From the UHGV virus genome UHGV-0096010: DNA of 24,017 nt; one strand, 5' to 3'. Made by a program: the position numbers and the translations under genes. Positions 11,176 to 12,524 of the stretch are shown here, piece after piece (position 1 is the stretch's first letter; each line of letters starts with the position of its first letter). Source of the stretch: a virus. A model generated the notes under the pieces. The model searched no databases and was not told the DNA's origin. It saw nothing but the letters and a program-made list of their open reading frames with translations.

Positions 11176-11970
11176 CTATACTAATACGAAATTCTTCAAA
11201 AACTCTTCCAAAGACTCGCCTGGATTATCGTTTTCTGATGAAATCATGCCTATTCTCCACTGTTCCAATATTTCCTCTTGAATTGGGTTTGGTCGTGGTA
11301 AGAAAATATAAGACTTTGGCTGTGCTTCTTCTAACTTTTGCTCTTTCCAAAGCTTGGACAATTTATAAAATAGTAGTCTGATATTAATATCTGACAGACT
11401 ATACCCAATAAAAAGAACTGATTTCCCGAGAACATCAGATCTAAACTTTATATCCAATGGAGTTTCAAACTCTAACCGTTGAAAGTAACTTGTTTCATCT
11501 AATACAATTGAACTATCGTCATCAAAGTCTCCATGAAACTTGATTATTTGCGTCTTATTATTATCTATTTTTGCAATATCAGAAACTGATGATATTTTTA
11601 TATACTCTTTACCATAGTTTGATAAGGCAGTTTCAATCCATCGGTCGTAATTTGTAGTATATATAATAGGGAAATTAGCTTTAGCTATGTACTCGTGAAC
11701 TTTAGACTTATTGATATCTATATCGCTAGAGTGCCACATTCTATCCATCCAGCTTCTAAGAGGCCCTATCTTGCCTTTTTTCAACTTGTAATACTCAGCT
11801 AACTCTAGTGCACTACCGAATGTACGATATATATCTGGGTCATAACCTAACTCAGTTGCAATGTGATCAACCAATTGACTCCATGATGGCAAACCTAAGT
11901 TCATTGACACACCAGCACCAACAAAAAGGATAACATTTCCTTTTTTATAATCAGCAAGTAATTGCTCCAT
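11176..11970 (-). CDS. SIR2-like (SIR2_2-type) protein, predicted NAD+-consuming effector (KomC-like)
   Basis: 264 aa; motifs [48 protein letters not shown] characteristic of defence-associated SIR2 domains; GGAGG SD; ATG overlaps upstream stop by 1 nt (TAATG); AT-rich. Confidence 0.75.
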
Positions 11971-12524
11971 TATTTTCCTCCCTCTAATAGATATTTTTTA
12001 AATTTATCGAAAGCTTTTTTCCTCATAGATATTTCATTTTTCCTATCCCCCATCTCAGCAAAAGTCTCACTTTCGCCATCAGGAATAAATATACAATCCC
12101 ATTGAAAATCTCGAGGGCCTTTTGGCACAGGAGATATCGTACCTTGAGTTTCACCTTCGAAAATATAGATTTTCATCGAATCACAATAGCCGATTATTGT
12201 TTTAGCAACTAAACGAGGGTTTTCACTTGTTCCTAATAATTGTGAAAATTTATCAGCTTGAAGCTTATCCCAAAATATTTGCGTTAAGCCACCCGGGAAA
12301 CCATTGAGGCTTTCTATATATAGTCCAGTATGTTCGACAAAGACCGGTCTTCCAACTAATTTAAATGCTTTTAATAATTTATCTTTAATTAACGCATGGA
12401 CATTTTCAGTTTGAATTTCATCTATAGAGTGTTCAGATGCTAATACAACTACTCCTGTACCTGATAGAATTTCATTTATTTCTTTAATTTTATGTCTATT
12501 TCTGGTTATAAATCGAATGTTCAT
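11970..12524 (-). CDS. HAM1/ITPase-family (non-canonical purine NTP pyrophosphatase-like) protein, possibly a divergent nucleotide-binding subunit (KomB-like)
   Basis: 184 aa; N-terminal T-x-N-x-x-K-x-x-E ([11 protein letters not shown]), [22 protein letters not shown] and C-terminal SMRKKA align by eye with RdgB/ITPA motifs, with several canonical residues replaced; AAGGTG SD; ATGA overlap with upstream gene. Confidence 0.7.

Follow-up and report, generated by a model that had tools for sequence, protein, structure and literature searches.

A prophage-borne HAM1-family protein identified as KomB, the dITP sensor of the Kongming anti-phage system

The viral genome UHGV-0096010, a stretch of 24,017 nucleotides that was analysed as a whole and is here called the window, encodes at 11970-12524 on the minus strand a full-length protein of the HAM1/ITPase family (184 residues), immediately followed by a gene for a SIR2-like protein. 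A first-pass annotation, in which motifs were aligned by eye, had proposed that several residues needed for pyrophosphohydrolysis are substituted, and that the protein may bind inosine or xanthosine nucleotides as a signal receptor coupled to the SIR2 protein. The question raised by this locus is whether the protein is an enzyme or a sensor. We conclude, with a probability of about 0.95, that it is komB, the second of the three genes in a complete Kongming (KomABC) anti-phage operon on a prophage-borne cassette. We confirm the observation; the system to which it leads is already known, both from published work and from solved structures.

The gene, its operon and its cassette

The Pfam profile PF01725 (Ham1p_like) matches the open reading frame from end to end (E 1.8e-39, profile positions 1-186 of 186). 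When solved structures were searched, the best match was 'KomB, HAM-like protein' (PDB 8zsg, 8zsh, 8zsi and 9xvc; E 1.9e-122), and the neighbouring SIR2 protein proved identical to an entry named 'KomC, SIR2 domain protein, NADase' (Table 1). Together with an adenosine deaminase gene, the two lie on one strand in the order PF00962 (komA), PF01725 (komB), PF13289 SIR2_2 (komC), which is the order that defines Kongming. The komA stop codon overlaps the komB start (ATGA), and the komB stop overlaps the komC start (TAATG). The longest komA reading frame begins 16 codons further upstream, at 13549 (segment 13502-13549, minus strand). Met17 of this frame is taken here as the start, because the H15/H17 numbering of the published work and the 326 residues given by RefSeq then agree; the upstream ATG is probably unused.

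Table 1. Features of the Kongming locus and its surroundings, with positions in the window.
Feature	Position	Strand	Basis or remark
Cassette of 3.5 kb, komABC and divergent TetR-family gene	10905-14401		shared with a different prophage, E. coli NCTC9041
komC, SIR2-like NADase effector (264 aa), catalytic His146	11176-11970	-	PF13289, E 1.5e-26; 264/264 identical to 8zsf_D
komB, HAM1-like, catalytically inactive dITP sensor of Kongming (184 aa)	11970-12524	-	PF01725; 182/184 identical to 8zsg_V
komA, adenosine deaminase (326 aa), dAMP/dADP to dIMP/dIDP	12521-13501	-	PF00962, E 8.9e-47
TetR/AcrR-family gene (148 aa), divergent from komA	13803-14249	+	TetR_N domain (Pfam); intergenic region 13502-13802
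T7-R-N9-R-H-K12, TxNxxK phosphate/nucleotide-binding motif, kept	12489-12506	-	alignment
E64-H-T-G-L68, against (E/D)-D-(S/T)-(G/C)-(L/F)	12321-12335	-	alignment
His65 codon, replacing the catalytic Asp (RdgB D69, ITPA D72, Mj0226 D65)	12330-12332	-	alignment
L80-T-Q-I83, against YSAR / YSKF / YSSY / YIKW; Leu replaces the Tyr of the four references	12276-12287	-	alignment
F140-Q141-W142-D-C144-I-F146, nucleotide-binding block, against FGYDPIF / FGWDPCF	12087-12107	-	alignment
S166-M167-R168, against SHR; His to Met, Arg168 kept	12021-12029	-	alignment
3' 46 nt of tRNA-Thr (…GGTTCGACTCCTATTATCGGCACCA), rest of gene absent	10604-10649	-	sequence
Hin/Gin-type serine invertase (Resolvase + HTH_7) by glycine-rich ORF, tail-fibre assembly and tail-collar fibre genes	14577-15167, 15158-15832, 15976-17906	-, +, -	

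KomB of the window differs from the PDB sequence, and from that of E. coli NCTC9041, only in having E18 (for K) and K177 (for E), and KomA shows a single difference from the NCTC9041 protein, Y78 for S. All three positions are variable within the family. The metal-binding H15 and H17 of KomA and the catalytic H146 of KomC are present, as are R8, N9, K12, E15, K49, H65, T66, F140, Q141, W142 and R168 of KomB; every feature of Kongming that can be looked for in a sequence was found. Given the near-identity and the intact key residues, this allele (E18, K177; KomA Y78) is expected to behave as the characterised one does.

The window is a further natural copy of Kongming, and its practical value is correct annotation. 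RefSeq still lists KomB as an ordinary pyrophosphatase ('non-canonical purine NTP pyrophosphatase'), and the 2023 PADLOC models omit Kongming. A PADLOC scan (PADLOC-DB v2.0.0, 2023) gave no model for KomB, which is uninformative because the library is older than Kongming.

Over 3497 bases the cassette matches a segment of the NCTC9041 Rac prophage at 99.66% identity, and the flanks are unrelated. Of 5426 complete E. coli genomes, 81 (about 1.5%) carry komABC at an identity of at least 99%, always on the chromosome. The G+C content is about 34-36% in the komABC region (from 4.5 kb onwards), against 50-58% further to the right. On the left, the cassette is flanked by a thrW-associated island (1-10649), which in E. 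coli RMDEC364 adjoins thrW/proA. The tRNA-Thr fragment looks like an att-site remnant at the right end of this island, and the cassette starts about 250 bp past it; ARAGORN found no tRNA in the window. The island (50-10649) encodes a Dit-like tail protein, a LexA-family regulator, a 613-residue protein assigned by RefSeq to the flotillin family, and many hypothetical proteins, none of which gave a defence match in PADLOC and Pfam scans. On the right, the cassette is followed by an invertase and P2-like tail-fibre and baseplate genes, in an arrangement (14577-17906) that resembles an invertible segment by which a P2-like prophage varies its tail fibres and host range. In megablast searches with the whole window and with its right half, no complete E. 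coli genome covered 80% of the query.

The TetR gene was considered as a conserved component of Kongming and rejected, since none of 80 KomBC loci of other species has a homologue. Within the E. coli cassette it could be a local regulator of komABC or a mere passenger.

The mosaic prophage surroundings, unmatched over 80% of the window by any complete E. coli genome, and the three amino-acid differences from the characterised proteins could be taken to mean that this is a decayed, non-functional Kongming copy, disabled by its substitutions or by a rearranged prophage context. We regard this as very unlikely: the three open reading frames are full-length, none of the functional residues tested is altered, the substitutions lie where the family varies, and the conserved 3.5-kb cassette also takes in the TetR gene and the intergenic region upstream. 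A complete Kongming operon remains the preferred reading, and no observation made here speaks against it.

Catalytic motifs and ligand binding

KomB was compared with four solved and characterised enzymes: E. coli RdgB, human ITPA, Mj0226 and PH1917. The RdgB and ITPA sequences were checked and are 100% identical to 1k7k and 2car; those of Mj0226 and PH1917 were taken from HMMER alignments. The register obtained from MAFFT and HMMER is unambiguous (E 2.7e-29 for Mj0226, and 1e-27 to 1e-29 across the solved ITPases), and reproduces the one previously set by eye. Conservation was assessed in 120 homologues of 59-84% identity, a set in which one member is a 121-residue E. coli fragment with 99% identity.

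As had been claimed, the TxNxxK motif (T7, N9, K12) and the FQWDCIF block (F140-F146) are kept and align with the corresponding ITPase motifs. The three substitutions described in the first-pass annotation need some qualification. In EHTGL, compared there with DDSGL, it is the second Asp that has changed (His65), whereas Glu64 and Thr66 are normal family variants: Glu is also found at the first position in the archaeal and human enzymes, and Thr66 is as in ITPA. In LTQI, compared with (Y/F)SAR, the replacement of Tyr by Leu80 stands, but 'SAR' is specific to RdgB and only the Tyr is common to the four references. The change of His to Met167 in SHR, a motif that has been named as an ITPase signature (PMC5075207), is real, but is poor evidence of inactivity, as it occurs in relatives that retain the Asp. 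The essential point holds in the formal alignment, where the catalytic Asp is indeed replaced by His65 and is not conserved.

His65 is present in 119 of the 120 homologues, the remaining one having Gln, and L80 and M167 in all 120. Q141 is likewise invariant across KomB homologues of 59-84% identity, and H65 and M167 occur together in 80 out of 80 genomic loci from other species. Positions 65, 80 and 167 (Asp to His, Tyr to Leu, His to Met) are the only three that are invariant in the four references and invariantly different in the KomB clade. This pattern of substitution is not due to chance.

The functional meaning of these residues comes from published work on a 99%-identical protein, which is our basis for dITP binding, the absence of hydrolysis, NADase activation and phage defence. 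The present analysis establishes the identity of KomB and KomC, the intact reading frames and key residues, the motif alignment, and the conservation of His65 and of KomB-KomC adjacency. According to Zeng et al. (bioRxiv 10.1101/2024.12.20.629578), KomA deaminates dAMP (its best substrate) and dADP but not dATP, and the remaining steps to dITP are carried out by a phage dNMP kinase and host NDK. KomB co-purifies with KomC, which is inactive alone, and the NADase activity of KomBC is strongly stimulated by dITP, which activates better than any other nucleotide; IDP falls short of it by a factor of more than 100, ITP, IMP, dUTP, NTPs and dNTPs are inactive, and XTP is absent from the nucleotides listed in this assay. 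No products were detected when dITP was incubated with KomBC, and the binding-site mutant N9A/K12A/E15A of KomB lost both dITP stimulation and immunity. Depletion of NAD+ led to population-level protection. The same authors singled out His65, in place of the catalytic Asp, as the inactivating change.

By cryo-EM, dITP is seen bound in the KomB dimer within a filament that KomB and KomC form with a 4:4 repeat (Li et al., Nat Commun 2026, PMC13454610). The hypoxanthine base is read by F140, Q141, H11 and R168, the R168 contact being made in the active state, while Q141, which is KomB-specific, and W142 exclude the 2'-OH and so give specificity for the 2'-deoxy form. Mutants of F140, Q141 and W142 are inactive (Li et al.).

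For the 99%-identical protein, the prediction of binding without hydrolysis is thus borne out by the lack of products from dITP. The expected ligand was correct as far as an inosine nucleotide is concerned, dITP being bound in KomB, but it is specifically the deoxy form, and ITP gives no activation. The earlier interpretation as a whole (an impaired HAM1 protein, an inosine-type ligand, SIR2 signalling) is supported, and is an already published mechanism.

Enzymes that degrade the signal exist in other signalling defence systems, and KomB has a full-length HAM1 fold with most of its nucleotide-binding residues kept. It could on these grounds be a still-active ITPase that clears the dITP or ITP made by KomA, and would then be an off-switch or an antidote against autoimmunity and not a sensor. 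The fold and family are those of an active ITPase, but the catalytic Asp is missing, being His in 119 of 120 homologues and in all 80 loci. SHR is also missing; this is a weak discriminator because SMR is found in Asp-retaining relatives too. The idea that KomB degrades the signal was itself raised and tested by Zeng et al., who saw no products from dITP with KomBC and found that the binding-site mutant loses activation and is not toxic. An active ITPase is largely refuted by the published assay, and we consider it highly improbable.

The SIR2 partner and the sensor clade

The KomB alignment was used to recover 80 loci of other species. These span many phyla, and in all 80 a KomC homologue lies directly downstream of KomB on the same strand, with gaps of 3-166 nt between the aligned segments. 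His146 of KomC is present in all 79 loci whose sequence extends over it. Of the 73 loci with enough upstream sequence, 33 have a full-length KomA directly before KomB, which fits the published view that KomBC is a constant module and its signal-producing partner is exchangeable (Zeng et al.). Seven of eight long His65-type representatives are HAM1-SIR2_2 fusions; two long Asp-type representatives are fused to other domains. A signal-receptor role coupled to the downstream SIR2 protein, as first suggested from the window, is the published mechanism of the 99%-identical protein, and the unbroken adjacency agrees with it.

These observations leave a negligible probability that KomB is an ordinary housekeeping RdgB-like paralogue standing beside a SIR2 gene by chance, with motif changes due to neutral drift: the RefSeq label and the presence of Leu80 and Met167 in apparently housekeeping HAM1 proteins would suit such a paralogue, but it is refuted by the synteny (80 of 80 loci across many phyla, plus the fusion proteins) and by published pull-downs and structures, which give a physical KomB-KomC complex and an immunity phenotype, and it sits badly with the invariance of His65, Q141 and M167 across homologues of 59-84% identity and with the location of the gene on a low-GC prophage cassette.

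KomB has kept its nucleotide pocket (N9, K12, E15, K49, F140, W142, D143, R168), lost the catalytic Asp (His65), and gained the clade-specific pocket residues Q141 and C144. In the window, dAMP and dADP would be deaminated by KomA, and a phage deoxynucleotide monophosphate kinase together with host NDK would carry the product to dITP. KomB dimers in a KomB-KomC filament would bind dITP without hydrolysing it, and remodelling of the filament would turn KomC into an active NADase. NAD+ would then run out, and the infected cell would die or arrest, so that the population is protected. Kongming has shown that a base-modified, non-cyclic nucleotide (dITP) can be a second messenger in immunity, and that the fold of a housekeeping 'house-cleaning' enzyme can become that of a receptor.

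The substitutions that mark the sensor clade were sought in an exhaustive HMMER search of 1.84 billion representatives, from which the best 150 HAM1 proteins were tabulated at positions 65, 80 and 167. Among these nearest (approximately 150) representatives, His-Leu-Met occurs in 33, Gln-Leu-Met in 10 and Asp-Leu-His in 10, while 25 of 149 are Asp-Leu-Met; in the last group the catalytic Asp is kept, and Leu80 and Met167 are already present. This group includes P0167, P0175, P0195, P0220, P0252 and P0187 (loci L083-L087), with the pattern 'EDTGL…PGAL…SMR'; P0195, for example, reads '…IEDTGL…GLPGALIKWF…FGWDQVF…ISMRR…'. No gene with a SIR2_2 domain was called in the 3-4 kb flanks of the four Asp-Leu-Met proteins examined. 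Two of these four lie among housekeeping genes, one beside Mur ligases and a P-type ATPase and the other beside IF3, L20, RF-1 and FtsA, while the surroundings of the remaining two are unremarkable or for the most part unannotated. One cluster includes the HAM1 protein of Minisyncoccus archaeiphilus (P0270). The Asp-Leu-Met proteins probably still work as HAM1 enzymes, and some belong to organisms of the Patescibacteria type with reduced genomes.

Since Leu80 and Met167 are common to apparently ordinary enzymes that retain the Asp, in part in housekeeping contexts, these two residues alone are no argument for inactivity, and it is the change of Asp to His that carries the argument. The sensor clade is marked by loss of Asp65 (to His or Gln), in line with the weight that Zeng et al. 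give to His65, and not by Leu80 or Met167, which either predate the inactivation or are independent of it. In a rough neighbour-joining tree built after masking the diagnostic positions, which has no support values and serves as a hint only, most of the His/Gln proteins form one group with the Asp-Leu-Met proteins beside it. The sensor may have been drawn from the enzyme lineage of these Asp-Leu-Met proteins.

The Kongming paper calls the His invariable, whereas Gln65 variants exist: Gln occupies this position in 13 of the 149 nearest representatives and in 1 of the 120 closer homologues. Behind one such variant (P0123, locus L088 686-1249) lies a KomC homologue with 57% identity. Neither Met167 nor Leu80 is mentioned in the main texts of the two Kongming papers (Zeng et al.; Li et al.).

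We tentatively propose that Leu80 and Met167 were inherited from an Asp-retaining, stand-alone HAM1 lineage and, independently, that the TetR gene regulates Kongming in the E. coli cassette, a combined proposal that we hold to be somewhat doubtful. Neither part appears in the main text of the two papers, supplementary figures aside. If Leu80 and Met167 were inherited, the sensor would have needed essentially a single key substitution, that of Asp65 by His or Gln, together with adjustments in the pocket (Gln141, Cys144). The marking of the sensor clade by Asp65 to His/Gln, and not by Leu80/Met167, is a modest refinement. The only increments over the published work are the status of Leu80 and Met167, the Gln65 variants, and the E. 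coli-specific TetR gene that travels with the cassette.

Comparison with known systems

Thoeris ThsA follows the same logic, in which a nucleotide-derived signal acts through a sensor module on a SIR2 NADase, and the best PADLOC match of KomC is the SIR2 domain of ThsA (E 8.9e-32, covering 12-228 of 478 model positions). ThsA carries its sensor, a SLOG/STALD domain, on its own polypeptide and responds to a cADPR isomer from a TIR protein (ThsB), whereas Kongming responds to dITP and senses it with a dead ITPase that is a protein of its own. KomC, at 264 residues, has a single SIR2_2 domain and no SLOG domain, and there is no TIR gene in the operon. Membership of Thoeris is ruled out by the lack of a SLOG/STALD domain and of a TIR partner.

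RdrB of RADAR and the type III CRISPR protein CAAD (CARF-adenosine deaminase) are, like KomA, defence deaminases that act on adenine nucleotides, and in the PADLOC CARF_ADA model it is the deaminase part that KomA matches (E 3.6e-36, positions 340-560 only). KomA differs from both in having no CARF domain and no RdrA partner, and in using dAMP/dADP and not (d)ATP as its substrate. Its product is a signal, whereas that of RADAR and CAAD is a toxic end point. The operon contains no ATPase gene, and on this ground and that of the missing CARF domain it is assigned to neither system.

A second solved HAM1-SIR2 complex is found in PDB 9v0g and related entries, named 'Xanthosine/inosine triphosphate pyrophosphatase' and 'NAD-dependent protein deacetylase'; a literature search found no paper matching it. 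The pair is distant from KomB (E 2.1e-25) and KomC (E 7.8e-44). Like KomB, its HAM1 protein has His at the position of the catalytic Asp ('VEHGAL') and Leu at that of the Tyr. Unlike KomB, it has FHWDPIF in place of FQWDCIF, so that not every member of the wider sensor clade has Q141 and C144.

The housekeeping ITPases RdgB (1k7k, 2pyu), ITPA (2car), Mj0226 of M. jannaschii (1b78) and PH1917 of P. horikoshii (1v7r) share the PF01725 fold with KomB. Common to all are TxNxxK, E36, the F-x-(W/Y)-D block, and S166 and R168 of SHR, and the ligand is in each case a hypoxanthine nucleoside triphosphate. KomB differs from them in sequence by Asp to His65, Tyr to Leu80, His to Met167, Gly to Gln141 and Pro to Cys144. 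It differs in function in that it is published not to hydrolyse its ligand, is specific for the 2'-deoxy form, and serves as an allosteric sensor in a SIR2 filament.

The prophage context of the operon in the window is unlike that of the Rac-borne copy in NCTC9041. Compared with the Kongming of E. coli NCTC13216, which was used in the published work (Zeng et al.; Li et al.), KomB of the window differs at the surface-variable E18 (K) and K177 (E), and KomA at Y78 (S); the operon and its key residues are the same, and KomC is identical.
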